From an uncultured Chloroflexia bacterium (GTDB taxonomy: Bacteria; Chloroflexota; Anaerolineae; Anaerolineales; UBA4823): a DNA stretch of 24,000 bases. The notes beneath the pieces are model-generated. The model made no database searches. It had not been told where the DNA came from and saw only the letters and a list, made by a program, of their open reading frames with translations. The stretch spans positions 317,287 through 341,286 of the forward strand of contig CAVZSL010000006.1 in assembly GCA_963777935.1 (NCBI GenBank). The letters are read 5' to 3'. Below, in pieces: positions 263 to 19,644 of this stretch. The translations under genes were made by a program, and so were the position numbers. Position 1 is the first letter of the stretch, and each line of letters starts with the position of its first letter.

Positions 263-739
263 TTAAGCATGCACAACTTCCAAGCTATCCAATAATTCCA
301 ATATCTCAGCATTGGATGGAATATCGGTCATATCATGACCATAATGTACATAACGAGCAACCCCATCATTATCCACGATCACCTGGGCTGGCATGCGCCC
401 AAATTTGAACAGGTTGATTTCCTGACCGTATAACTTGAGAACGCTTGCTTTAGGATCTGGTAAGCCGATGAAAGGCAGATTGTGTGTATGAAAATAAGTT
501 GCAAAGGCTTTGGGATCTTCTGGACCAACCACAATCACTTGAGCCTGCCGTTTGACAAATTCCTGATAATCCCTGCGCAACTGCGCCATATGCATTCGGC
601 AGAATGGTCAGGTAAAACCGCGGTTAAAAACCAACAATACACTCGATGTGCCTCGATAGTCGGATAAGTGTATTGTTTTACCTTTATAATCTATAAGGGT
701 AAAATCAGGCGCAGGGGTATTCAACGAGACTCTTGGCAT
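263..739 (-). CDS. Peroxiredoxin-like (AhpC/TSA-redoxin family) thiol-disulfide oxidoreductase, probable selenoprotein; 158 codons with in-frame TGA (U44) at 608..610
   Basis: The ORF track gives only 263..595 (MHMAQL...). Reading the same frame upstream gives MPRVSLNTPAPDFTLIDYKGKTIHLSDYRGTSSVLLVFNRGFT-TGA-PFCRMHMAQLRRDYQEF... This is a canonical redoxin N-terminus (APDFTL, LSDYRG, VLLVF), and the TGA sits where Cys homologues carry the first Cys of CxxC. The ATG at 737..739 is preceded by AAGGAAG. The next upstream stop in frame is at 767..769. Confidence 0.72.
545..604 (-). promoter_or_regulatory. Candidate bacterial SECIS-like stem-loop immediately 3' of the in-frame UGA
   Basis: On the mRNA, CUGCCG (602..597) can pair with CGGCAG (550..545). 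An apical GCGC-AGUU-GCGC hairpin lies at 586..575, and its loop begins 25 nt after the UGA. Hand-folded only; the asymmetric internal region is not convincingly paired. Confidence 0.3.
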
Positions 740-1724
740 TGGTTTCTTCCTTAGGTTGAGTATCATTCAGATATTTGATTACAGCCTCCAAAAACGCTTG
801 TGGTTTTTCCTCATGTGGTACATGCCCGGATTCAGCGATCACCACCAGGCTGGCATTGGGTAGCTCGGCTGCCAGGCGGATGCTATCTTTGGTAGGGATT
901 ATGCGGTCGTCATCGCCGGTAATCACCAATACTGGCACACTTATCTCATCCAGTCGTTTGGTTAAACCAATTGGCCGGTTGGCAAGGGTGAACTCCCACA
1001 GCGCTTTATCCCAATTCTCAACCTGGTAAGGTTTCTTATAAAACTCCATCATCTCCGGGGGTAATAATGCAGGGTTATGCCAGGCCAATTTGATTAAATC
1101 AGGACCGCGTTTTAAGATCTGGCGGGCGATCAATGGTCCCAGGCGACGCATTTGTGGGGTTGCAAGGATGGGCTTCATCCATTGCGGGGCCCCTCCACCG
1201 TTATAAACGGCCGGATCGACCAGGATCAGTGCTGAAACACGCTGCGGATATGCCAGTGTTGTCTGCATTGCCACAGTTCCCCCTGCTGAGTTGCCCACCA
1301 GAATAGCCCTCTGAATACTAAAGTGATCCAGTAATTTCACCGCTATCTCTACCTGCGTCTCAGCGCTGTAGGGGTTCTGTCTTTGCCAGGTTAGGGGACG
1401 CTCAGAGAGGCCAAACCCAGTGCGGTCATAGGCAATCACCGTTCCAAGCCGGCTAAGGGGTTCCATGACATCATGCCAGGAGTACAAGCTGGAAGCAAAT
1501 CCATGCATTAGAAGAAAAACTGGCTCACCCTGTCCCATCTTTTTTACGTGGATATCCAACCCATTAATCGCAACGAATTGGGAGTCTTCATCTGCCAATA
1601 CCTGGGGAGGGAAGGTATTTTTAAGTGGTTTTATAGGAATAAGCAAGGGTCCAACCGCCACAACGACCAATCCGCCTGCTAATATTAGGAAACTATTACG
1701 CTTTCGGGACCGATGCATGCTCAT
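705..1724 (-). CDS. Membrane-anchored alpha/beta-fold hydrolase
   Basis: 339 aa. N-terminal TM segment FLILAGGLVVVAVGPLL, HGFASS region, nucleophile elbow GNSAGG, and GDDDRIIP plus SGHVPHEE near the C-terminus (Asp/His of the triad). The 3' end overlaps the redoxin gene start by 35 nt. Confidence 0.85.
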   Translation of the reverse strand: MSMHRSRKRNSFLILAGGLVVVAVGPLLIPIKPLKNTFPPQVLADEDSQFVAINGLDIHVKKMGQGEPVFLLMHGFASSLYSWHDVMEPLSRLGTVIAYDRTGFGLSERPLTWQRQNPYSAETQVEIAVKLLDHFSIQRAILVGNSAGGTVAMQTTLAYPQRVSALILVDPAVYNGGGAPQWMKPILATPQMRRLGPLIARQILKRGPDLIKLAWHNPALLPPEMMEFYKKPYQVENWDKALWEFTLANRPIGLTKRLDEISVPVLVITGDDDRIIPTKDSIRLAAELPNASLVVIAESGHVPHEEKPQAFLEAVIKYLNDTQPKEETNAKSLVEYPCA

Positions 1725-1731
1725 ATTTCGA

Positions 1732-2505
1732 TTATTGAACAGGTTGAACTGAAGATGTTTTATCAGGCATAATGAATGCCAATATCAGGGTCATGGCCAC
1801 CAGTCCGAAGGTGATCCAGGTGGGAATGGCGATCGCAGGGATATTCGCAAATTTGACCGAAATTCCTGCCAAAGCCCACAGGATAACCGCGGTATAGGCA
1901 ATGTCTCGCCGGGAAAAATTCATCAATGTAGCGATCACAAACACCGCCACCAGGATGATATACATCCAGACTTCAGCGGCAATCCCGAATCCATCCCAAT
2001 TCAGGAAATAGAGCAATTCGGTGATATTGGCAATCGTCGCTACCGTTATCCAACCCAGGTAGATACTGAATGGTACGCGTACTGCCCAGGTCTCTGCCCT
2101 AGAGACACTACTCCGACCAGTGCCCAGACCCAGGTAGGTGATAATGAGTGTGCCAAGCAATACCAACATGGCGACCAGTGTCAAAGTGAACAGCTCATAG
2201 TGCCACAGGAAGATCCAGGCGATGTTTGCTAATCCTCCGAGGGCTATCCACCAACCAGTAGCTCGCAGGCGTGGATTCTCACGTTGAGAAGGAAGCGCCT
2301 GAAAGATGGCAAAGGCAATTAATCCGATATAAATCACACCCCAAATAGCAAATACATAGCCGGCAGGCACAAAATAAACCTTAAAGCGATCTGAGATTGC
2401 ACCAGTATTTAAGCCATTAATGGGCAAGGCATTGGCAAGCACGTTGACCACGATGGTAGCAAGAATAGTCAATGCTACAGAAACTTGTCGTAGGATATCT
2501 TTCAT
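1732..2505 (-). CDS. TspO/MBR-related tryptophan-rich integral membrane protein (putative)
   Basis: 257 aa and polytopic. The N-terminal NALPINGLNTGAISDRF...FVPAGYVFAIWGVIYIGL and the Trp-rich WWIALGGLANIAWIFLWHYE resemble the long 'tryptophan-rich sensory protein' homologues as I remember them. Not HMM-verified. Confidence 0.5.
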   Translation of the reverse strand: MKDILRQVSVALTILATIVVNVLANALPINGLNTGAISDRFKVYFVPAGYVFAIWGVIYIGLIAFAIFQALPSQRENPRLRATGWWIALGGLANIAWIFLWHYELFTLTLVAMLVLLGTLIITYLGLGTGRSSVSRAETWAVRVPFSIYLGWITVATIANITELLYFLNWDGFGIAAEVWMYIILVAVFVIATLMNFSRRDIAYTAVILWALAGISVKFANIPAIAIPTWITFGLVAMTLILAFIMPDKTSSVQPVQ

Positions 2506-2506
2506 G

Positions 2507-2887
2507 TTATTCTCTCACTTTCAATTCTAATATAGTATTTTTTCGTCCATCCCGATTTCCGGTCCAAGAAAATATTGTTTTCATTAGACCGTATTTTTTA
2601 CTCAACAAGCGATCGACCATACGGTCGATTTCCTGATTCGAGATTTCGCGGGCTTCTGCTTGAACCCAATCGCTAAGTAACGTGCCATCCATTTTACATG
2701 GTGCAATGTTCACCTGTGAATTATAACGGATGCGTTTCACCTTCCCTGAATCAGCAATTGTGCGGATATATAACTCTTGACCATCCTGGACAAACCAAAC
2801 TGGAGTTCTCACACCCACACCGCTCTTCCGGAAGGTTTCCAGATTTAGATATTTTTGTTTTTCAAACGCGGGAAACATAATAATCAT
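2507..2887 (-). CDS. Pyridoxamine 5'-phosphate oxidase-like (PPOX class, possibly F420/flavin-dependent) protein
   Basis: 126 aa. [47 protein letters not shown] resembles small PPOX-class split-barrel proteins. The start ATG overlaps the photolyase stop (ATGA at 2884..2887), and the stop lies 1 nt before the next gene's start. Confidence 0.6.
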
Positions 2888-4285
2888 CTTCCTCCTTTAC
2901 GATAAGCTGCCAATGCGCGTTCCCTTGCCATGGCATGGTCAACGATTGGGGCAGGATAGTTCTTTCCGATCACACAACCCACCTGAGTTTGCATATTGGT
3001 AGGCATCTTCCATGGCGTGTGGATAAATGCATCTGGAACTCGTGATAACTCCGGAACCCAGTGGCGTACATAGGCGCCCAGTGGATCGTATTTTTTCCCT
3101 TGCAGGACAGGATTGAATAGCCTGAAATATGGCACTGCATCGGTACCAGTGCCAGCTATCCATTGCCAACCACCATTATTGGCTGCCGGATCACCATCAA
3201 GCAGGTGCTGCATAAAATATCGCTCTCCCTGCCGCCAATCGATCAATAAATCTTTGGTCAGGAATGAAGCTGTGATCATGCGCGCCCGGTTATGCATCCA
3301 ACCGGTGGCATTTAGCTGGCGCATACCAGCATCCACCACTGGATACCCGGTGTATCCATTAACCCAGGCATCATATCCAACTGCGTCATCCCGCCATGGG
3401 ATCTTACGCAGCTCTGGACGGAAGGCGCCCTGGCGCACATGTGGAAAATGATAGAGGATGGTGGCATAAAACTCACGCCAGATCAGCTCGTTCAGCCAGG
3501 TTTTGACACTTTGACGTACTGTTGGGTCTGTTGCTAATGCCTCCGCTTCATGTGCTGCCCATGCTGCCTGCCTGGCTGAAAGCATACCAAAACGCAGGTA
3601 GGGCGATAAACCTGATGTACCTTCTACATCCAAGCGGTTGCGATCTTCGGTATAACGATTGATCAACGAATCAGTGAACCTTGCCAACCTCGTTTGTGCC
3701 TCTTCTTCACCAGCAGGAAATAATTCTTTATATGAATAACCTGGAAAATCAGGCGATAACCATGCTAATAAGGGGAGGTAAAGCAGGCAATCGCTCAGGT
3801 GGCGGGAGTGGTTTGCCAGGAAAAGGCAGGCTGTGCCACATCCGGCTGAATGGTGTGAACATAATATACGGTGAGCCATTGGGCTTTAGCAGTTCTTCAG
3901 CAGGGTGAACGGTGATGCCATTGGTAAGCTCGAGTGGTAATTCACGTATCACGCGTGCATCGCGCTGCCTACCGTATGGTGAAACATCTGCCTCGGCAAA
4001 GATACCTTCAACTTCAGCCTCATAACACAAACTTCGCAGCACATCCAGGGGTTGTCCCTTTCGTATGATAAGCTTGCTCCCCCGCTGGCGTAATTCTGAA
4101 TCGAGTGAACGTAAACCCTCAAACAGGAAAGCTAAACGCTGTTGGCTGATGTATGGCGAGTCCAGTAACTTGGGGTCAATGATAAATACCGGGATGACCA
4201 CTTCTGCCTTTAATAAGGCAGTTGCCAATGCCTGGTTATCTCGCAAGCGTAAGTCTCGGCGAATCCACCAAATTGCTCTTTTCAT
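2884..4285 (-). pseudogene. phr: Deoxyribodipyrimidine photolyase (cryptochrome/photolyase family) split by a frameshift into 3749..4285 (N-terminal alpha/beta domain) and 2884..3879 (FAD-binding domain)
   Basis: The N-terminal ORF begins MKRAIWWIRRDLRLRDNQAL...[12 protein letters not shown]. The C-terminal ORF contains [81 protein letters not shown]. The two frames overlap at 3749..3879. Genuine sequence resumes in the second frame at ...[20 protein letters not shown], so the shift lies at about 3750..3790 and looks like one extra nt. Confidence 0.85.
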
Positions 4286-5538
4286 CAGATAGTCTCTTCA
4301 GCCACCTTCTCGCGGTTAGCTGGACGGATGATACGCCAATAGGCAAGGACAATCGTCCAGGCCATCAGGATAGCACTAAAAACACCTGGCGCCCATACAC
4401 CCAGATGTTGCAGCAGGTAACCCCCGGCGATAGGGGCAATAATTCGGGTCACTGCTTCGAGAGATGTGGTTATACCAAGAATACCTCCCACTTCCTGTCG
4501 TGTGACGGATTTGGTGGTAGTACTTTGGATAATGGTATTCGATACCCCTCCAGCAACTGCCAGAGGCAAGATCAATACCACCAGGATCCATAGCTGTGTA
4601 GCAAAAGACCAGGCGAGTAATGCGCCAGCCATGACCCATAGTCCGGTGATCATCAAGGAATTTTCTCGGAAGCGACGGGTCAGGAAACCAATCAACCCAG
4701 CTTGGGTCACCACGGCTAAGACTCCCACATACGCCAGCAAAATCCCAGTAGTCTGCGAGCTCAAGCCAATCGTCTGAGCATAAAGGGCAAATATGGTTTG
4801 AAATATAGCAAAAGCGAGTGCGTAGAAGAACCGTACCTGGAGCAGGGGACCAACTTTTGGACGATTAAGCGCCTCCTTGAGAGCATTAAATGTGAACGGT
4901 GGACGTCTTTGCCCGGATATAGTACTCCTTCGGTCAGCGGAAAGTGATTCAGGTAGAAAAAATATGATCATTAGCACGTTGATGAAGGATACTGAAGCAG
5001 CTACAAAGGCAGGTAAGCTGTATCCCCACTTGCTGAGTGCGCCGCCTACAGCTGGTCCGATAATGAAACCCAGTCCAAATGCCGCACCGATCAATCCCAA
5101 GCCTTTGGCGCGGTTTTGATCATCCGTGACATCGGTGATATATGCCTGTGCGACTGTGATATTACCTCCAGTCAGTCCATCGATGACACGACTTAAAAAC
5201 AACACTGCCAAGACAAATGCATTTGCCGCTTGTGGAGCAATCAAATCCGCTAAGAAATGACCGATGGGATCGGCAAAACCAAGCAGCAAGAATCCAATTC
5301 CTGTACCAATCACGCTTATCAGCAAGACCGGTCGTCGGCCAATTCGGTCTGATAATCTCCCAAGCAAAGGCGCACCGATCAACTGAGCTGCTGCATAGGA
5401 TGCTACCAGCAAGCCAACAATAGTCGGAGTTGCACCGTAGGCTTCAGCATAATACGGTAATAAGGGTAAGATCAGGCTAAAACCCAACAGATCGATAAAA
5501 ACAATTAGAAAAATGGTCAACAAACGCGAATTTTTCAT
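4285..5538 (-). CDS. MFS transporter (DHA1/Tet-like family)
   Basis: 417 aa, about 12 TM. LLGFSLILPLLPYYAEAYGATP and the GRLSDRIGRRPVLL motif (MFS loop 2-3). The stop overlaps the photolyase start by 1 nt (TGATG). Confidence 0.85.
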   Translation of the reverse strand: MKNSRLLTIFLIVFIDLLGFSLILPLLPYYAEAYGATPTIVGLLVASYAAAQLIGAPLLGRLSDRIGRRPVLLISVIGTGIGFLLLGFADPIGHFLADLIAPQAANAFVLAVLFLSRVIDGLTGGNITVAQAYITDVTDDQNRAKGLGLIGAAFGLGFIIGPAVGGALSKWGYSLPAFVAASVSFINVLMIIFFLPESLSADRRSTISGQRRPPFTFNALKEALNRPKVGPLLQVRFFYALAFAIFQTIFALYAQTIGLSSQTTGILLAYVGVLAVVTQAGLIGFLTRRFRENSLMITGLWVMAGALLAWSFATQLWILVVLILPLAVAGGVSNTIIQSTTTKSVTRQEVGGILGITTSLEAVTRIIAPIAGGYLLQHLGVWAPGVFSAILMAWTIVLAYWRIIRPANREKVAEETI

Positions 5539-5582: not shown

Positions 5583-6878
5583 TTATAGGGACATCTCATA
5601 CTTTGCCAGCTGGACTTGTATGATCGATGCATCTTCTCCAAGGTAATGTTCAACCTCAATGCGATATGTGGCGTAATATTCATTCACCAATGATGCGGAG
5701 AGACCATAAGTTTTAAACATGCCATTCAACCAGAAAATGGTGTGATCTAATAAATTAATATCACCTAATTCAAGTGCTGATGTAATGGACTGGTTGAGGT
5801 TTTCATTGGCATTGTCCAATTGAGCTGGTTTAATCAGCGCAGAACGAAAAGAAGAGGATACATGCGTCACAACAGCCCATTCATTTTGAAGATATTTTGT
5901 CAATATTTGGGTATATTGGAGAGGTACAGGTAATGCGGAGGGCATTGGAGGAGGTGCAGAAATGAGTTGTTCAACCGTCTGGGGAATGCTTTCCACATCA
6001 GTTCCCAGGAAATAGCCTGAGATACACTTGGTGGCGGCAGGAACCTGGTTAAAAATTCCACCTCCATACGCCAGAGGTACAGACTGTGTGATTAGGTATT
6101 CAGACACTGCGCGGAGTGAAGCGGCAGTTTTGAGTGTCTGAGCAGTCGAGAGTATCAGAATTGGTGATGTGGATCGGATGGTTGCATCCAGGTCTATGAG
6201 AGGCACATTGGACCCGAGATAAACCACATCCCAACCACGCCTTCGAAGCAAGAAAGTGATTACCAATAAAATGAAATCGTGTTCCTCACCCGGTGGGCAG
6301 GCTGTCAGGATACATCCTGGTCGAATGGGTGGGGCAGCTGCTGCCAGGAGAGTATTAATACGCCGAATGGCGATGGCCGACGTGAAATGCTCCTGTTGAA
6401 CACTTACAGACCCAGAGTACCATCCCTCCCCGACCAGTGCCAGGCCTTTCTGAAGAACTTCGCTAATGGTCATTTCTGGGGCAGTCACAGCGAATGCTTC
6501 ATCAAGTATTCGGTTGGCACCCTGGTCGTCAAACGCTAAACAAGCCGATACCCATCGCGCTCGCAGAATATCTAATATACTTTCACCCGTTCCGATTTCA
6601 GGTACAGGTGTTCGACCATGTTGTAAGCTATCCTGATCATATTGGTGTTGGTTTTTCCACATTTCCATGGCGCTACTGATGCTCAATCCTTCTGCTTGCC
6701 TCTCGATCAACCATTTCAGCATCTCGATATCTTGTCTGGAGTAGAGCCGGTGTCCACCGGGCGACCGCTTGGGCTTGAGAAGATCATATCTCCGCTCCCA
6801 AGCCCGTAAAGTCACTGGGTTTATCCCAACCTCATTGGTCACAGCTTTTAGATTATAGAGGGGTGTATTGTCTACCAT
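5583..6878 (-). CDS. MerR-family transcriptional regulator with cobalamin-binding domain (CarH/LitR-like light sensor) plus ~125-aa C-terminal extension
   Basis: N-terminal MerR HTH (YNLKAVTNEVGINPVTLRAWERRYDLLKPKRSPGGHRLYSRQDIEMLKWL). W153-x9-E163-H164 (GEGWYSGSVSVQQEHF) matches the Wx9EH motif of AdoCbl photoreceptors. The Rossmann-like B12 domain is CPPGEEH200DFILLVITFLLRRRGWDVVYLGSNVP ... AYGGG. Residues ~306-431 have no domain I recognise. Confidence 0.85.
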   Translation of the reverse strand: MVDNTPLYNLKAVTNEVGINPVTLRAWERRYDLLKPKRSPGGHRLYSRQDIEMLKWLIERQAEGLSISSAMEMWKNQHQYDQDSLQHGRTPVPEIGTGESILDILRARWVSACLAFDDQGANRILDEAFAVTAPEMTISEVLQKGLALVGEGWYSGSVSVQQEHFTSAIAIRRINTLLAAAAPPIRPGCILTACPPGEEHDFILLVITFLLRRRGWDVVYLGSNVPLIDLDATIRSTSPILILSTAQTLKTAASLRAVSEYLITQSVPLAYGGGIFNQVPAATKCISGYFLGTDVESIPQTVEQLISAPPPMPSALPVPLQYTQILTKYLQNEWAVVTHVSSSFRSALIKPAQLDNANENLNQSITSALELGDINLLDHTIFWLNGMFKTYGLSASLVNEYYATYRIEVEHYLGEDASIIQVQLAKYEMSL

Positions 6879-6956: not shown

Positions 6957-7727
6957 TTATACCGGTGCTAAGGTGCCTGCAAAGATGATCCATGCCAGGA
7001 CGGTCTTTGCAGTCAGGCTCAGGATCACATACACCCGTTCACCAAACAAATAATCTTTCCATGGACCAACCTTCTTATATTGCAAAACCATGTTAATTGC
7101 AAAGATATTGAAGAACACAAAAAGGGTTGGGATGATGGCATATACGAAAGCAGGTGGTTTGCCACCTTCCCCTACTAAAGATCCCAAGAAGTAGGTCACA
7201 ATTACGATCCAGGGGACAATCCCTGCAATGCAACCAAAAATGAAAGCGGTCCAGTTGGTTTTCTGCGTATTCTGGTTGTGAAGCTCCATCAAGAGCCCAA
7301 ACAGGTTCATCATGGCGTTGATGCCAAAGATAAGAATGATGGCGCCAAGGTCATAAATACCTACCAGCATTCCAATCAGCACGATCATCACAGACGAAGA
7401 AAGTGCATATTCATAAAACCGGACTGGGTTCATGCCCTTTTTTAAGTTGGAAACATATAACTTATAGCCAACTGTAGCGAGGAAGAAATGCGCTACTGCC
7501 GAGAGAAGTAGAAATACGGCTACCGCTGGACCAAAGAGTAATTCAGCAGCTATCTTTGGATCGGGTACTAAAGCCATTGTTGCTGTATCAAACTTGAGGA
7601 AATTAGTGTAAATTGGATAAGCGGTATCATTGCTTAGTATGATCATCAGGAAGCCCTGTATCAAGTGCAAAAAACCCATGCTTAAGTTAAAACGTCGTAA
7701 TCCTAAATACTTTTTTTCTTCGTCCAT
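6957..7727 (-). CDS. Heliorhodopsin (retinal-binding 7-TM photoreceptor)
   Basis: 256 aa. FLHLIQ (H21), AVAHFF (H80), RFYEYALSSSVMIVLI (E106), FGCIAGIVPWI, FVYAIIPTLFVFFN and GERVYVILSLTAKTVLAW (K241, codon 7005..7007) parallel the conserved blocks of heliorhodopsin 48C12 as I recall it. AGGAGA lies 5 nt upstream of the ATG. Confidence 0.85.
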   Translation of the reverse strand: MDEEKKYLGLRRFNLSMGFLHLIQGFLMIILSNDTAYPIYTNFLKFDTATMALVPDPKIAAELLFGPAVAVFLLLSAVAHFFLATVGYKLYVSNLKKGMNPVRFYEYALSSSVMIVLIGMLVGIYDLGAIILIFGINAMMNLFGLLMELHNQNTQKTNWTAFIFGCIAGIVPWIVIVTYFLGSLVGEGGKPPAFVYAIIPTLFVFFNIFAINMVLQYKKVGPWKDYLFGERVYVILSLTAKTVLAWIIFAGTLAPV

Positions 7728-7773
7728 TGTTGTCTCCTATTCTGTTATTGCCTGCTATATATTCTTATCCATC

Positions 7774-7848
7774 TCTATAGAAGGATTGATTGAAAATTTA
7801 GCAAATGTACACATTGTGTATAAATAATAATAACATATTGTATAGATA
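7774..7848 (-). promoter_or_regulatory. Heliorhodopsin promoter region with four tandem 11-bp direct repeats (candidate CarH/LitR-type operator)
   Basis: The minus strand reads TATCTATACAA (7848..7838), TATGTTATTAT (7837..7827), TATTTATACAC (7826..7816), AATGTGTACAT (7815..7805). All four have A at position 2 and T at position 5, and three have ACA at positions 8-10. The array abuts TTGCTA (7804..7799, -35-like). TATAGA/TCTATA (-10-like) lies 17-19 bp further on, about 45 nt before the ATG. Confidence 0.45.
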
Positions 7849-8089
7849 TTGGCAAGATTATTTAGATTAAGGTTTGATTAAAAAGCTGAGATTCCATCAC
7901 TTCGGGAAAAGTGAGTTATAACTCCAACAGCCCCCATCAAAAGATACGCAGGTGCAATGCAAATAGGCTACTAGATTTTTCAACCAAATCCACCTGATTT
8001 TTCCCCTGATAAGTTAAAAATTTTTGCCTTATTCTGTAAATCTTCTTGCCGGTTGGTACTAGAAAAAATTTTCCTTTGGTCAGTGATTA

Positions 8090-8129
8090 AAACAAAGAAA
8101 AAATGAGTGTATATCTGTGTTTCTCACTC
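8090..8129 (-). terminator. Weak rho-independent terminator candidate after crtI
   Basis: On the minus strand, GAGTG (8129..8125) / CACTC (8109..8105) form a 5-bp stem with a 15-nt loop, followed directly by ATTTTTTCTTTGTTTT. The stem overlaps the crtI stop codon. Confidence 0.3.
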
Positions 8130-9614
8130 CAATCCTGCAAGCTCATCCACAATCCTCTTTGCCGCCAAACGACCAGAGATCATGGCTGTTGGTATGCCCG
8201 TGCCAGGGCGGGTACTTGCCCCCACAAAGTACAGGTTGCGATACCGTGGGTGTCGGTTGGATGGGCGAAAATAGCCTAATTGGCCCAGGTTATGTGACAA
8301 ACCGTGTGTGGAACCCTTCACCAGGTTATATCGTTTCCGCCAGGAAAGGGGAGTAAAAGAGACTTCAAACTTGATGTGGGTATGGAGATCAGTGATTCCC
8401 AACAATGCCAATCGACGGAACACATGTGCACGCGCCTGATCTGTCAATTCGTCCCAATCCTGGGATCCATCTTCAGACAGGTGACCCACAGGCACGACTG
8501 CGATCAGGGTATCTTCACCGGGCGGAGCCATTGAAGAGTCGAGCTGCTTGGGAGCGTGAATATAAAGACTTGGATTGGCAGGAAGGCCAAGCTCATTTGT
8601 GATGGTATCGAAGTTTGACTGAAAATCATCTGCCAGAAAAAGGGTGTGCGGATCAAGAATCTTATAGGGTTTATCAACTCCCCAGAAGAAACTGATCACT
8701 GAGCAGGAATAGCGTTTTCGGGTCATCTTTTCAGCCCGGTAATCTATGGGCAGGAGATCCTGATAAACATATGGCAAATCAGCATTCGCCAGGACCAAAT
8801 CTGGTGATTCACGCTGGTTATGTTCAAGTACCAACTCCTCTACTCGCTTGCCGTTTGCAGTAATTTGCTCCACGGTTGTATCGAAAGCAAATTCCACCCC
8901 GGCATTGCGGGCCAATGTCATAAGCGCTTCCACGATGCTATACATTCCACCCTTGGGATACCATACACCGTGTGCAAGCTCTGTGTATGGCATCATAGAG
9001 AAGGTGGCAGGAGCTTCAAAGGGGCTCAGTCCCATGTACACATCCTGGAAGGTGAAGGCTGCCTTTAGGTGCGGATTCCGGAAATAACTCGACATATGGG
9101 CATAATGATTCCTCAGGGGTTTTAACTGATAGAGTAAGGGAATATTGCTGAAATTAAAAAAGTCGGAAAATCGGCGAAAATCACGGTTCACTAATTTATC
9201 CATCGCTAAACGATAATGCCGCTCACCTTCTGCATGATAGCGCATGAATCCTTGATAGGCACCATGCTCTATGGACTCCAATTGATCCCGCATGGACTGC
9301 ATATCTGATGTGAGTGCCAGCTGGCTGCCATCATCAAATACCAGGCGATAAGATGGATCTACCTGGTGCAACTCGAGTAAATCAGCTATCGAACCACCCA
9401 GGGAGGCAAATTCTGCCTCGTAGACAGGCTGCATAACCATCAGGGTTGGTCCGGTATCAAAGTGGTGACCCTCTCGCTCGATCCAATCACAGCGCCCACC
9501 GGGGTTGGCGTTTTTTTCCATCACAGTGACATGCAACCCATGCTTAGCCAGGTGGATTGCCGCACAAATTCCACCCACACCAGCGCCGATAATCACAACC
9601 GATTTCACCTTCAT
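8124..9614 (-). CDS. crtI: Phytoene (or diapophytoene) desaturase, CrtI family FAD oxidoreductase
   Basis: 496 aa. N-terminal dinucleotide fold VVIIGAGVGGICAAIHLAKHGLHVTVMEKNANPGGRC. C-terminal FVGASTRPGTGIPTAMISGRLAA is typical of CrtI/CrtN. Strong SD (GAGGTGAGGAAGG). The ATGA overlap with the upstream synthase gene is at 9611..9614. Confidence 0.85.
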   Translation of the reverse strand: MKVKSVVIIGAGVGGICAAIHLAKHGLHVTVMEKNANPGGRCDWIEREGHHFDTGPTLMVMQPVYEAEFASLGGSIADLLELHQVDPSYRLVFDDGSQLALTSDMQSMRDQLESIEHGAYQGFMRYHAEGERHYRLAMDKLVNRDFRRFSDFFNFSNIPLLYQLKPLRNHYAHMSSYFRNPHLKAAFTFQDVYMGLSPFEAPATFSMMPYTELAHGVWYPKGGMYSIVEALMTLARNAGVEFAFDTTVEQITANGKRVEELVLEHNQRESPDLVLANADLPYVYQDLLPIDYRAEKMTRKRYSCSVISFFWGVDKPYKILDPHTLFLADDFQSNFDTITNELGLPANPSLYIHAPKQLDSSMAPPGEDTLIAVVPVGHLSEDGSQDWDELTDQARAHVFRRLALLGITDLHTHIKFEVSFTPLSWRKRYNLVKGSTHGLSHNLGQLGYFRPSNRHPRYRNLYFVGASTRPGTGIPTAMISGRLAAKRIVDELAGLE

Positions 9615-10579
9615 CCTTCCTCACCTCGATCGGTCAGTGCTGCTTGCAAACCGGGTTCCAGGCTCATCCAAGGAATGTTTAATACCGATAATGTTGTCCT
9701 CCAGACCATCCACAATCCGGCCTTAAGACTTTTCCGTTCAGGGTATTCAGGACGAAGATAATATCCGTCCTGTTCTATAGCTCGCATCATCCATTCGAAA
9801 CGGGCCAGGTAAGCAAAACCTGCCAGGCGACAACGAAAACTTTTAACCTGAGCGATATAGCTCCTGCCATCCTTAAAATATTGACGGGCAAGCTTCACCC
9901 TCCCAAAAACCCACCTGCGGAAAGACAGGCTATGTAATTCATCCAGCGAAATTTGCTGTTCGGTGATGTATTCTCCAGGAACATTGATATACCCTGCGGA
10001 AATATCTTCAACCACATCGCGCAGCATATGCACCACATGGGCGCCATTCACAGCATCATAGCGGTTTTTAGTTCTGGTAGGAGAATCCTCATGACCAATA
10101 AAGTAGAATAATAGCTCCGTCACTGCTGTGGAAAGTAAATGTGTATACTCGGTTAATTCAGCCTGGGAGATCACTTGACCGCAGCGTTCCACGTCAAAAG
10201 CCATTACTGCCATCATATTGCGGAGGTAGATTTGTAATCCACTGTCCTTTTTCCCATCATTTCGGACCAAATCCACCAGCATCTGCTCCTCCAGACTCAC
10301 ATCATCAGGTTGGTTTCCTTGATAACATGCTTCCAAAAGTGCCTGCTGGCTTTTTATTAATGCAACCTTCTCCGGTTGTGTGCCTGAATCACAGTCGAGG
10401 AGATCGTCCAACCAGCGGAAGTAGGCGTAAGACCGAAATGCATCCTGCACGCGATCTCGATCGGTTAAAAGACGGAACGTATAATAGGTTTGCTTACTTC
10501 CGGCCTTGGTGATCTTGGCAGGTAAATCGGATTTACCCGGTTGCACAGGTAGTCTTTGATTTATTGGGTTATTGACCAT
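9611..10579 (-). CDS. crtB: Phytoene/squalene synthase family protein (CrtB/CrtM-like)
   Basis: 322 aa. First Asp-rich motif YFRWLDDLLD, second motif MLRDVVEDISAGYINVPGEY. Directly coupled to crtI. Confidence 0.78.
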   Translation of the reverse strand: MVNNPINQRLPVQPGKSDLPAKITKAGSKQTYYTFRLLTDRDRVQDAFRSYAYFRWLDDLLDCDSGTQPEKVALIKSQQALLEACYQGNQPDDVSLEEQMLVDLVRNDGKKDSGLQIYLRNMMAVMAFDVERCGQVISQAELTEYTHLLSTAVTELLFYFIGHEDSPTRTKNRYDAVNGAHVVHMLRDVVEDISAGYINVPGEYITEQQISLDELHSLSFRRWVFGRVKLARQYFKDGRSYIAQVKSFRCRLAGFAYLARFEWMMRAIEQDGYYLRPEYPERKSLKAGLWMVWRTTLSVLNIPWMSLEPGLQAALTDRGEEG

Positions 10580-10775: not shown

Positions 10776-11897
10776 ATGGACGCTGACATGCAAGCTACGG
10801 CATTAGCTAGCCTGAACGATGAGCTCAATGGGGCATATCTTTATGATGCACTGGCGCAAGCTGAGAAAGATCCCCGCCTGGCAGAAGTATATCGGCGCAT
10901 GGCAGCCGTAGAGCGTAAACACGCGGCCACCTGGGTGGAACGTCTTAAGGAATCTGGTGTGGCAATCCCTAATTTTAAAACCAATTGGCGCAGTCGCACC
11001 CTGGCTTGGGCAGCCAAACACCTGGGTGTGGGAGCGGTATTACCCACTGTGATTGGGAATGAGCGCAAAGATACTCGCAAATATGCCTACACTCCGGGTG
11101 GCGCAGAGATGGGAGCAGATGAAGCATCCCATAACCGGTTGTTGAGCCTTGTGGCCAGGGATATGAAAGGTGGAATGGAAGGCGGGGCACTCGCCCAACT
11201 GGAAGGCAGGCATCGTGCGGGTGGAGGGAATGCCCTACGGGCAGCGGTATTGGGAGCTAATGATGGGCTGGTATCCAACTTGAGCCTGGTGATGGGTGTG
11301 GCAGGTGCTTCTCTGAATAACTCGGCTATCCTGATCACTGGTTTTGCTGGACTATTGGCTGGGGCAATCTCGATGGCATTGGGTGAGTGGCTGTCGGTGC
11401 AAAGCTCCAGGGAGCTATATAAGCATCAGATCAGCATTGAGAAGGCGGAGCTTGCTGCAGCACCCCAGGAAGAAGCCGAAGAACTGGCGTTGATCTACGA
11501 GGCACGCGGCCTACCCACCGATGAAGCCCAACGCATGGCTCAGCATATCATCAGCGACCCAGAATCTGCTCTTGAAAGCCTTGCCCGTGAAGAGCTCAAC
11601 GTGGATCCTTCTGAACTGGGTGGCTCAGCCTGGGAGGCTGCCTTAACGTCCTTCTTCCTTTTCTCCATCGGTGCGATCATCCCGGTGCTGCCGTACACCT
11701 TCCTGAGAGGCACCACTGCAGTGACCGTCAGTATGGTGATGAGCGGTGTTGGGTTATTTATCATCGGCGCGGGCATCACCCTTTTTACGGGGCGAAACGT
11801 GCTGTATTCAGGCGTACGGCAGGTGTTGTTTGGCTTGGCTGCAGCCACAGTCACCTTCGGCATTGGCCGGGTGATCGGAAAGAACCTGGGTGGGTAG
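10776..11897 (+). CDS. Erythrin-VIT1 fusion: ferritin-like N-terminal domain + VIT1/CCC1 iron/manganese transporter (MbfA-like)
   Basis: 373 aa. The N-terminal di-iron-like helices are YLYDALAQAEKDPRLAEVYRRMAAVERKHAATW and DEASHNRLL. The C-terminal part has GANDGLVSNLSLVMGVAGA and the TM helices typical of the VIT family. GGAGG lies 5 nt before the ATG. Confidence 0.8.
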   Translation: MDADMQATALASLNDELNGAYLYDALAQAEKDPRLAEVYRRMAAVERKHAATWVERLKESGVAIPNFKTNWRSRTLAWAAKHLGVGAVLPTVIGNERKDTRKYAYTPGGAEMGADEASHNRLLSLVARDMKGGMEGGALAQLEGRHRAGGGNALRAAVLGANDGLVSNLSLVMGVAGASLNNSAILITGFAGLLAGAISMALGEWLSVQSSRELYKHQISIEKAELAAAPQEEAEELALIYEARGLPTDEAQRMAQHIISDPESALESLAREELNVDPSELGGSAWEAALTSFFLFSIGAIIPVLPYTFLRGTTAVTVSMVMSGVGLFIIGAGITLFTGRNVLYSGVRQVLFGLAAATVTFGIGRVIGKNLGG

Positions 11898-18108: not shown

Positions 18109-19644
18109 ATGGCAACAGAATCTATCAATAGATACCCACTGCGTGACCGTTGGTCATATCTCTGGCTGGGTATCGCGGCAGTTCTGCTTGTATTCACTTA
18201 TGGAATGTATCGCAATCCACTGGCTGCTTTATTGGCGCAGGTTTTCCTTATTCGCTTCCTACGCAGTCGAAAGATCGGTGTAGGCTATCTTCTGATCTGC
18301 CTGACGCTGGTGGTGGCTAATATAATCTCCTGGTGGAACCTCATGCCGACGAACCCCATCCTGGTTCGCATTATTATGGGGTCCATTTTTGGATTGTTAT
18401 ACTCTATTCCCTTCTTGCTGGACCGTGTGTTGGTGGGTCGCTTTAGTGGATTTGCTACTACTCTGGTCTTCCCTTTCGCCAGATCTGCGTTCGAGTTCCT
18501 TACCCTGTGGCCTAATCCGCTGGGTACATACGGCGCACTGGCCTACAGCCAGTTCAGCAGTGTGTATCTCACCCAATTGGTGTCGATCACAGGGTTATGG
18601 GGTGTCACCTTCCTCGTTTCATGGTTCGCCTCGACGGTCAATTGGATCTGGGAAGAGGGCATGGCCTGGCAACGCATCCGCCGTGGTCTGGCAATTTTCG
18701 CTGGCGTGACACTGGTTGTTTTGCTGTACGGCATGGTTCGCCTGACCTATTCTCAACCTCAGCCCGGAAGCGTGCGCATCCATGGGATCGTCGAGACCGA
18801 CTATACTCGCTACGATTGGGATACCAAGATCTGGCCTTTGAGTAAGACTGACCCTGAGGCTTTCAGAGCCATGATGACCCCCGTTTACGAGCGCTACTTG
18901 CAGGCTACCATCCGCGAAGCCCAGGCTGGAGCCCAGATTGTTGTATGGCCAGAAGTGGCTGCCGAAGGCTTCCGCCAGGATTTAGATGCAGTACTCTTGC
19001 AAGCGCAGGAAATCGCCCGTCAGGAAGGCATCTACCTGGCAGTGGGGTTGAACGTGATCAGCCCAAATTCGAACCCCGAAGGGGAGAACAGGCTTGTGAT
19101 AATCGACCCGCGTGGCGAAATTGTCATAAACCAACTCAAGTATGGCTGTATGGCTTTTAACATGTACGACTTCGAGATTCCAACTGTCAACACACCTTAC
19201 GGCAGGCTGGCTGGCGTGATTTGCTGCGACCTCGATTTCCCATTTGTCATCAGGCAGGTGAGCCAAAAAGGCATTGACATTCTACTGGTTCCTAGCTTCG
19301 AACCGACAACGGCAAACATCACTGCGCATTCGCAGATGGCTCCTTTCAGTGCCATTGAAAACGGCGTGTCAATCTTCCGACCTACGAGCATGGGAATCTC
19401 GCTCGCCATCGATCCATACGGACGCATCCTGGGCTCCATGGATGCCACGCGTGTTGACCAGCGCGTATTTGTGGTGCAGTTGCCCAACCACCATGTTCAT
19501 CCCGTCTATTCTGTGGTTGGTGATCTGTTTGGGTGGTTGATCGTAGTTGGTTTTGTGGTTATCGTGGGCTGGGCAATCTTCAGTAACCGCAAATCCCGAG
19601 CAGAAACAACTAGTTCTACAGGGCCACAGCCTCCATCTGCATAA
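18109..19644 (+). CDS. Lnt-like membrane-bound carbon-nitrogen hydrolase (apolipoprotein N-acyltransferase family architecture)
   Basis: 511 aa. The N-terminal ~220 aa are polytopic. The C-terminal CN-hydrolase domain carries an E-K-C triad context: IVVWPEVA, NQLKYG, AGVICCDLDFP. A final TM helix follows (WLIVVGFVVIVGWAIF). AAAGGAG SD. Confidence 0.78.
   Translation: MATESINRYPLRDRWSYLWLGIAAVLLVFTYGMYRNPLAALLAQVFLIRFLRSRKIGVGYLLICLTLVVANIISWWNLMPTNPILVRIIMGSIFGLLYSIPFLLDRVLVGRFSGFATTLVFPFARSAFEFLTLWPNPLGTYGALAYSQFSSVYLTQLVSITGLWGVTFLVSWFASTVNWIWEEGMAWQRIRRGLAIFAGVTLVVLLYGMVRLTYSQPQPGSVRIHGIVETDYTRYDWDTKIWPLSKTDPEAFRAMMTPVYERYLQATIREAQAGAQIVVWPEVAAEGFRQDLDAVLLQAQEIARQEGIYLAVGLNVISPNSNPEGENRLVIIDPRGEIVINQLKYGCMAFNMYDFEIPTVNTPYGRLAGVICCDLDFPFVIRQVSQKGIDILLVPSFEPTTANITAHSQMAPFSAIENGVSIFRPTSMGISLAIDPYGRILGSMDATRVDQRVFVVQLPNHHVHPVYSVVGDLFGWLIVVGFVVIVGWAIFSNRKSRAETTSSTGPQPPSA

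Follow-up and report, generated by a model that had tools for sequence, protein, structure and literature searches.

Operators of the CarH type, as described for Thermus, Bacillus and myxobacteria, are composed of three or four tandem 11-bp repeats of the form nnnnTnnACAn, some of them degenerate, which overlap the -35 or the -10 element of the promoter; the signature motifs of CarH itself are RxWERRY, Wx9EH, E-x-H and GG, of which Wx9EH contacts the upper axial adenosyl group (PMC9304148). Photoglobin, a family of non-haem globins, is related to phycocyanin and usually fused to the domains B12-binding_2 and B12-binding; an architecture with a MerR helix-turn-helix (HTH), B12 domain and photoglobin, as well as members in Chloroflexi, was given by Schneider et al. 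(PMC8717448). In the photocobilins, which are crystallised B12 and biliverdin photoreceptors, the globin module packs against the B12 domain (PMC10979010). For heliorhodopsins (HeRs) the cellular role has been argued case by case, with glutamine synthetase, a photolyase and an ABC transporter among the partners put forward. The present work concerns a HeR gene and the CarH-like regulator gene next to it on a stretch of 24,000 nucleotides from an uncultured Chloroflexia bacterium (contig CAVZSL010000006.1, positions 317,287 to 341,286), here called the window.

Among the HeRs with a proposed partner is TfHeR of Trichococcus flocculiformis, which binds a class 2 cyclobutane pyrimidine dimer (CPD) photolyase with a Kd of 21.7 uM and raises its repair activity (PMC9769723), a precedent to which the original prediction for the window had correctly pointed. 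The supplementary table of Shim et al. 2024 (PMC11109279, Supplementary Data 3) lists the same operon as ours in Chloroflexi RBG_13_50_21 and Anaerolineales FeB_25, in the order crt, helR, 'hypothetical protein', MFS (major facilitator superfamily), photolyase, PPOX, 'tryptophan-rich sensory protein' and hydrolase; the HeR of RBG_13_50_21 (P0008) is 92% identical to the window HeR. The entries for these loci are classified by their photolyase, leave the regulator unnamed and describe no operator, B12 or photoglobin domain, and a separate "MerR family" group of HeR operons is named in the same source. In the part of their work that deals with gene neighbours, Chazan et al. report DNA photolyase and cobalamin-binding proteins as recurrent neighbours of HeRs, and near proton-pump rhodopsins too, while Bulzu et al. 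describe carotenoid and photolyase genes beside zinc-finger HeRs.

Both the HeR, as a member of its family, and its neighbourhood, as tabulated by Shim et al., are thus already known. What appears to be new relative to the literature searched is the identification of the unnamed neighbour as a CarH-like regulator with a photoglobin-like domain, the predicted and conserved CarH-type operator on the HeR promoter, and the regulator rather than the photolyase as the constant partner of HeR, by which the published grouping of these loci is corrected. In the same literature we found no paper tying a rhodopsin gene to a CarH/LitR regulon, and no MerR-type photoglobin member that was either characterised or linked to a rhodopsin. 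We propose, with a probability of roughly 65%, that a photoprotection operon of the CarH type, derepressed by light, begins with HeR. If true, synthesis of HeR in these bacteria would have to await the detection of light by a B12 sensor, an abundant environmental HeR clade would gain a testable regulatory context (promoter, operator, repressor type and a co-expressed set of photo-oxidative-stress genes), and the uncharacterised MerR, B12 and photoglobin architecture would have its first predicted target genes. With its operon under a B12 light-sensing repressor the HeR light sensor would probably itself be light-induced, which offers a handle on HeR function.

The HeR gene and the predicted operator on its promoter

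The open reading frame (ORF) at 6957..7727 on the minus strand encodes a protein of 256 aa with about seven hydrophobic segments. Pfam PF18761 (Heliorhodopsin) matches its residues 10-253 with E 4.5e-103 and 344 bits (cutoff 26.7) over the full length of the profile (1-242 of 242), the NCBIfam HeR equivalog model NF038020 gives 373.4 bits (cutoff 100), and no match to type-1 rhodopsins or another 7-TM family was found in the profile searches. By these matches the ORF is a genuine full-length HeR and an ordinary member of the known family, in agreement with what had been predicted. The four key residues named in the prediction, H21 in FLHLIQ, H80 in AVAHFF, E106 in RFYEYALSSS, at the counterion position, and the Schiff-base lysine K241 in SLTAK (codon 7007..7005), are all in place, as befits an ordinary sensory-type HeR, and align to H23, H80, E107 and K241 of the solved HeR 9ljj (48C12-type numbering), which in 48C12 belong to TM1, TM2, TM3 and TM7, respectively. 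Closest among the solved structures are 6is6 (TaHeR, Thermoplasmatales; 1.1e-76) and 6su3 (HeR 48C12; 9.3e-56), which together with BcHeR of Bellilinea caldifistulae share with the window HeR full-length homology and the four key residues. The protein may accordingly be expected to have the inverted membrane topology of the family, to bind retinal and to run a long non-pumping photocycle. Its best protein matches, at 95-92% identity, come from Chloroflexi and Anaerolineales metagenome-assembled genomes (MAGs), and the source is a Chloroflexota bacterium of the Anaerolineae type. B. caldifistulae belongs to the same bacterial class, and its HeR locus (L074, 74% identity) differs in having neither a repeat array (DR score 9) nor an adjacent regulator, whereas the subclade of the window HeR carries the CarH-type operator described below. 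Nine residue positions specific to the clade were found in HeR, none of which indicates an interface.

In transcription order on the minus strand the cluster consists of crtB-like, crtI-family, HeR, regulator, MFS transporter, photolyase, PPOX, a 257-aa membrane protein, hydrolase and AhpC/TSA-like genes. The spacer between crtI and HeR is 397 bp, and that between HeR and the regulator 78 bp, with no terminator-like site detected in the latter. The context originally described is thereby confirmed: crtB-crtI lie upstream of HeR, the MerR-B12 gene downstream of it, and a photolyase on the same strand starts 2.7 kb downstream.

Upstream of HeR a CarH-type operator of five tandem 11-bp units is predicted at 7805..7859 (minus strand) from the consensus in PMC9304148. 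Its units are, in order, AATCTTGCCAA TATCTATACAA TATGTTATTAT TATTTATACAC AATGTGTACAT, forming the pattern dr-DR-dr-DR-DR, in which the three DR are perfect for nnnnTnnACAn and the two dr are degenerate. The best sigma-70-like promoter found by the promoter scan (TTGCCA, a 17-nt spacer, TATTAT and an extended -10 TG; 7827..7855, minus strand), which is also the best match in 5.5 kb, coincides with this array, its -35 lying in repeat unit 1 and its -10 in unit 3. This arrangement of tandem 11-bp TnnACA repeats over the -35 and -10 is the one known from CarH/LitR operators, to which the locus is also similar in the autoregulation suggested by position. A ribosome-binding site, GGAGA, is located at 7733..7737 on the minus strand, 5 nt before the HeR ATG at 7727. 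Just upstream of the -35 the clade alignment shows a further conserved element, TTAATCAAACCTTAATC (TTAATCAAAnnTTAATC; 7865..7881, minus strand), which most clade members have and which keeps the 11-bp register of the CarH-type repeats. When 22 clade members were aligned, the -35, DR1, the -10, DR3, DR4 and the ribosome-binding site were conserved, but the spacer between DR4 and the ribosome-binding site was not.

The array, read from 7859 to 7805, is the highest-scoring site of the window, and its five-unit score was reached in none of 100 shuffles of the window and in none of 2000 shuffles of the intergenic region. For the comparison among loci, arrays with a score of at least 13 of 16 were counted, for which the background, determined on both strands of 2.8 Mb of fetched real sequence, is 0.014 per kb. 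Of 96 loci, 24 have such an array in the 250 nt upstream of HeR, where about 0.3 would be expected, an enrichment of about 70-fold. Three loci without HeR upstream of the regulator (L096, L097 and L105) have the array directly upstream of the regulator gene, which fits an autoregulatory operator. Arrays also precede HeR, at a distance of about 100-300 nt, in five loci with no regulator gene within 10 kb (L004, L008, L035, L041 and L062), and in two of these, L035 and L041, HeR is still followed by photolyase, PPOX or hydrolase genes; this suggests an unlinked regulator and a regulon extending beyond the adjacent genes. The HeR genes with arrays include some of other clades (L035, L041, L062 and L080).

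In L096 the place of HeR is occupied by a gene on the opposite strand (326..1879, minus) for an unrelated, membrane-anchored protein of 517 aa, and the regulator retains its upstream array. Two MAGs each carry two HeR genes of different clades, L001 with L040 and L005 with L031. The CarH-type array of the first pair is found upstream of the window-type copy L001 only; in L005 the array is located ahead of the gene that precedes HeR (position 150), suggesting an operon of two genes.

In the proposed mechanism an oligomer of the adenosylcobalamin (AdoCbl)-bound regulator would occupy the repeats over the -35 and -10 in the dark and block transcription. In the light the Co-C bond would be cleaved and the oligomer would leave the DNA, and HeR, the repressor itself and the photo-oxidative-stress genes, that is the MFS transporter, photolyase, F420 oxidoreductase, membrane protein, hydrolase and AhpC-like protein, would then be expressed. 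The family assignments, motifs, operator statistics and linkage are drawn from sequence analysis; AdoCbl binding, repression, light induction and co-transcription are here inferred by analogy to the CarH systems, from which the locus would differ in that the predicted direct target is the HeR operon and not the carotenoid genes. HeR would stand on the output side of the B12 photoreceptor, rather than being an input parallel to it, and, once made, would most likely act as a slow-cycling, light-dependent partner of another protein, as do other characterised HeRs. The original prediction had seen in the adjacent retinal and cobalamin photoreceptors a possible two-colour module. This idea is weak because a green range is described for CarH-type AdoCbl sensing as well as for HeRs, and by the sequence evidence HeR instead ranks below the B12 sensor, as one of the genes regulated by it.

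The long-form regulator and its C-terminal domain

The regulator gene (5583..6878, minus strand) encodes a protein of 431 aa with a MerR HTH (residues 8-73), a B12-binding_2 four-helix bundle (107-177), a B12-binding Rossmann domain (189-282) and a C-terminal domain. It aligns to Thermus CarH (TtCarH, 5c8d) at 3.6e-30 and carries the CarH motifs: RxWERRY of the recognition helix as TLRAWERRY, Wx9EH of the four-helix bundle as W153-x9-E163-H164 (GEGWYSGSVSVQQEHF), E-x-H with the lower-ligand His as E198-x-H200 (PPGEEHD), and GG as G272-G273. In 71 long-form homologues these motifs are at least 90% conserved, several positions of RxWERRY being invariant. The MerR head with RxWERRY, together with Wx9EH and E-x-H, is shared with the CarH/LitR class I repressors of Thermus, Bacillus megaterium and Myxococcus, and the earlier description of the neighbour as CarH/LitR-like is borne out by this combination of domains (MerR, B12-binding_2, B12-binding) with CarH motifs. 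By analogy to these proteins the regulator would bind AdoCbl, oligomerise in dependence on it and release DNA in the light. In the more extended classical signature, D/ExHx2G/P...SxT/V...GG, the Gly/Pro after Hx2 is replaced by Ile (EEHDFI) and SxT/V is present as S-T-A.

Compared with CarH the protein is extended by about 150 aa, the additional part being the C-terminal domain, which the class I repressors lack. Such long-form regulators are common, with more than 120 clusters of 412-457 aa, and 207 cluster representatives have the C-terminal domain. This domain (residues 283-431; 5586..6032, minus strand) is predicted to have a six-helix globin-like fold: the AlphaFold2 (AF2) model shows six helices at a pLDDT (predicted local distance difference test) of 85, and in a Foldseek search of the PDB the top 50 matches were all phycobiliproteins, with weak E values of 0.01-0.06 and TM scores of 0.55-0.67. 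No Pfam or NCBIfam family matched it, an indexed search with the domain returned only three relatives, and profiles of the domain alone against PDB and Pfam gave nothing meaningful and did not reach the photocobilins. When the profile of the full-length long-form regulator was used, it aligned in one collinear stretch through the B12 and globin domains of the photocobilins 8J2X, 8J2W and 8J2Y (about 6e-23), whereas its alignment to CarH ended with the B12 domain.

As in photoglobins and photocobilins, a CarH-like B12 domain is thus followed by a globin-like helical domain. In the alignment an invariant Trp of the long-form family falls on chain residue W290 of SasPcob, which under an assumed 6-residue numbering offset corresponds to Trp296, the residue in contact with corrin and biliverdin (PMC10979010). 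In photoglobin the residues counted among those of the bilin pocket are D49 and L80. Near-invariant D91 and Y123 of the domain are 32 residues apart, like D83 and Y115 of phycocyanin, the register being assumed. The domain differs from the photocobilins at the position of the biliverdin-binding Asp270 (PMC10979010), which is Asn in the regulator and variable across the long-form family, and in having no Cys or His conserved across that family; a direct hhalign comparison with the SasPcob domain gave P 0.0044 at a probability of 8%. On balance we consider the C-terminal domain to be quite probably a divergent photoglobin-like module, and should it bind a bilin, the sensing range of the regulator could reach into the red, as it does in photocobilins. 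A function of the domain as a docking module for HeR had also been considered and was dropped once the relation to photoglobin emerged.

Conservation of the neighbourhood and alternative explanations

Conservation was followed in two sets, a HeR-based one of 80 species-representative loci with 72-88% identity, and metagenome loci selected through the regulator. In the HeR-based set the HeR-regulator tandem is limited to L001-L003; L014 and L080 have a long-form regulator paired with HeR in other arrangements, so that the regulator is nearby in 5 of the 80 loci overall. A photolyase within 10 kb of HeR occurs in 3-4 (among them L014, L035 and L060), and no neighbour family was found in more than 10. 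Of the 24 informative metagenome loci, 21 have HeR as the gene immediately upstream of the long-form regulator, and the same is true for all three loci with divergent regulators (52-59% identity) and for three genome loci, giving a total of 27 of 30. Across the tandem loci HeR is 84-98% identical, the regulator being down to about 52%, and the stretch that separates the regulator from the 257-aa membrane protein is variable: 12 of 27 loci have the photolyase, MFS and PPOX genes come and go, and nearly every locus has both the membrane protein and the hydrolase. In a neighbour-joining tree all tandem-linked HeRs form one separate subclade. HeR has its constant partner in the regulator, and not in the photolyase. 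The linkage suggested by the original prediction is therefore conserved beyond this genome, but it was not new after Shim et al. 2024, it gives limited independent support and it is confined to one subclade of HeRs.

Retention of HeR in the cluster could be explained by binding and stimulation of the co-encoded photolyase, as done by TfHeR. The two genes share the strand at a distance of 2.7 kb, the same arrangement is found in 12 related loci, close relatives stand in the photolyase group of the table of Shim et al., and the Trichococcus pair, also encoded in one co-directional cluster of HeR and CPD photolyase, provides the precedent for binding and enhanced repair (PMC9769723). The window differs from that pair in several respects. 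Two other genes lie between HeR and photolyase, the DUF2238 gene found together with HeR and photolyase in Trichococcus is absent, and the photolyase (2884..4285, minus strand) is by profile of the class-I type (NF007955 348 bits, against about 35 bits for the class II model TIGR00591), while TfPHR is of class 2. Moreover, the photolyase is dispensable, being absent in 15 of the 27 HeR/regulator loci while HeR stays 84-98% identical, and in the part of Chazan et al. mentioned above photolyases are equally near to proton-pump rhodopsins. The window copy is split into two overlapping ORFs, from 4285 to 2884, by one extra base near 3755 which is lacking in L081 and L082; this frameshift may reflect either true inactivation or an indel of the assembly, the source contig being apparently a long one of 433,749 bp. 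With the photolyase patchily distributed, of another class and frameshifted in the window, the partnership, which had been one of the leads of the original prediction, is weakened here, and we regard it as unlikely. As it concerns the role of HeR after induction, it would be compatible with a light-derepressed operon.

The crtB-like (10579..9611) and crtI-family (9614..8124) genes, both assigned by profile searches on the minus strand, lie immediately upstream of HeR as had been noted, and they might be there to supply a chromophore precursor or a carotenoid antenna. In favour of an antenna, residues F163, C167, G170, F206, N207 and A210 of the window HeR, aligned by eye, correspond to the carotenoid-fenestration residues F162, C166, G169, F206, N207 and A210 of 48C12 (preprint 10.1101/2025.11.27.691015). 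That proposal is based on structures and docking and invokes exogenous xanthophylls (10.1101/2025.11.27.691015); in the window neither a lycopene cyclase nor a beta-carotene dioxygenase was detected, so that retinal or a ringed xanthophyll could not be made from crtB-crtI alone, and blh is rare near HeRs in the data of Chazan et al. on HeR neighbours. The adjacency is loose in relatives, with crt genes missing in L113 and genes inserted between crt and HeR in L111, L112, L002 and L003, and no operator is shared between crtB and HeR. Such a link between HeR and the carotenoid genes is in our view scarcely probable.

Several observations weigh against the proposed operon. The operator consensus is low in information, with 4 fixed bases per 11, in a region which is AT-rich, and the two-unit pattern by itself is not significant in the window (3 found, 1.8 expected), where only arrays of four or five units are. 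A search of the 330 nt upstream of crtB, in the window and in six relatives, gave background scores of 9-11 only and no CarH-type operator, a departure from the classical CarH regulon, and crtB-crtI is consequently not shown to be part of the regulated unit. The regulator reaches 139.8 bits on the NCBIfam CarH equivalog NF052513, below the cutoff of 400, and is for this reason filed as CarH-like and not as a CarH orthologue. Its Rossmann domain is marginal for Pfam B12-binding (32.9 bits, cutoff 32.1), which goes undetected in several homologues, and with the Gly of E/DxHxxG, present in class I proteins, replaced in EEHDFI, binding of AdoCbl is not assured. In the unbiased species set the HeR subclade has 8 members, of which just 3 have the regulator adjacent. 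Finally, HeR transcripts rise in the dark in one actinobacterium (PMC8591293), so light induction is not a general property of HeRs.

The weak consensus would also suit a chance explanation, in which an AT-rich promoter has produced the array by accident and the gene order reflects synteny inherited within one lineage, all the more since all loci come from one bacterial class and the metagenome loci were chosen through the regulator. Chance would have to account for the roughly 70-fold enrichment over real-sequence background, for the selective conservation of the repeat cores within a variable spacer, for the move of the array to the regulator gene where HeR is absent and for the arrays at HeR genes of other clades, and we hold it to be improbable.

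The constancy of the HeR-regulator pair, which is the most constant feature of the cluster and occurs in three gene arrangements, always with the long form, could also reflect direct signalling, with the membrane-bound HeR modulating the soluble repressor and retinal and B12 (perhaps also bilin) signals meeting on one promoter. Other HeRs act by protein-protein contacts, and control of a LitR-family repressor, PmlR2, by a separate photoreceptor, a short LOV protein, has a precedent (PMC9758184). An autoregulated operon explains the linkage more simply, the C-terminal domain resembles the intramolecular globin module of photocobilins and need not dock HeR, HeR has few clade-specific residues, the most striking of them in a predicted extracellular loop, and no contact of a HeR with a transcription factor is known. 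Direct signalling appears highly improbable to us. A more elaborate arrangement, to which we give little credence, would combine induction and feedback: HeR and the MerR-B12-photoglobin regulator would form a multi-chromophore module, in which HeR is induced by the regulator and feeds back on the latter or on the Trp-rich membrane protein of the cluster. If true, it would unite retinal, adenosylcobalamin and possibly a linear tetrapyrrole, joining an irreversible B12 switch to a reversible retinal sensor, and would represent the first physiological output both for a MerR-type photocobilin-like protein and for a Chloroflexota HeR.

Further genes of the cluster and its surroundings

All downstream members of the cluster lie on the minus strand. 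The MFS transporter (4285..5538), recognised by profile searches and neighbour comparison, and the PPOX-class F420-dependent oxidoreductase (2507..2887; TIGR03666 108 bits, cutoff 85) are, like the photolyase, variable members. The alpha/beta hydrolase (705..1724; profile searches and neighbour comparison) is a persistent one.

The most persistent downstream member, as seen by neighbour comparison, is the Trp-rich multi-pass membrane protein of 257 aa (1732..2505), which contains 11 W and is present in 23 of 24 loci. The window protein had no family match in Pfam and NCBIfam searches, its homologues have a weak TspO_MBR match only, and the single-sequence AF2 model (pLDDT 58) was too poor for a structure search. 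One homologue is named 'tryptophan-rich sensory protein' in the table of Shim et al. 2024 (PMC11109279); given the lack of a family match and the quality of the model, this name, and a TspO/MBR-like identity in general, is treated here as weakly supported. Being co-conserved with HeR, the protein is a candidate HeR partner.

The cluster ends with an AhpC/TSA-like redox protein gene (263..703), in which an in-frame TGA at 610..608 gives GFT-U-PFC with a U-x-x-C redox motif. The TGA is kept in all 15 homologous regions of the fetched loci, including a paralogue family of about 30% identity (REFN*MQC). The gene probably encodes a selenocysteine protein which is divided in two by ORF callers; an RNA fold of the region after the TGA gave an unconvincing selenocysteine insertion hairpin (z = -1.6).

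Divergent from crtB, a gene for a VIT1-family iron/manganese transporter with an N-terminal rubrerythrin/ferritin-like stretch is located at 10776..11897 on the plus strand, and is retained beside the cluster in several relatives (L086, L113). Further away on the plus strand (18109..19644) there is an apolipoprotein N-acyltransferase (Lnt)-like gene with LNT_N and CN_hydrolase domains, which in a Chloroflexota genome is of note because HeRs are said to be confined to monoderm organisms.

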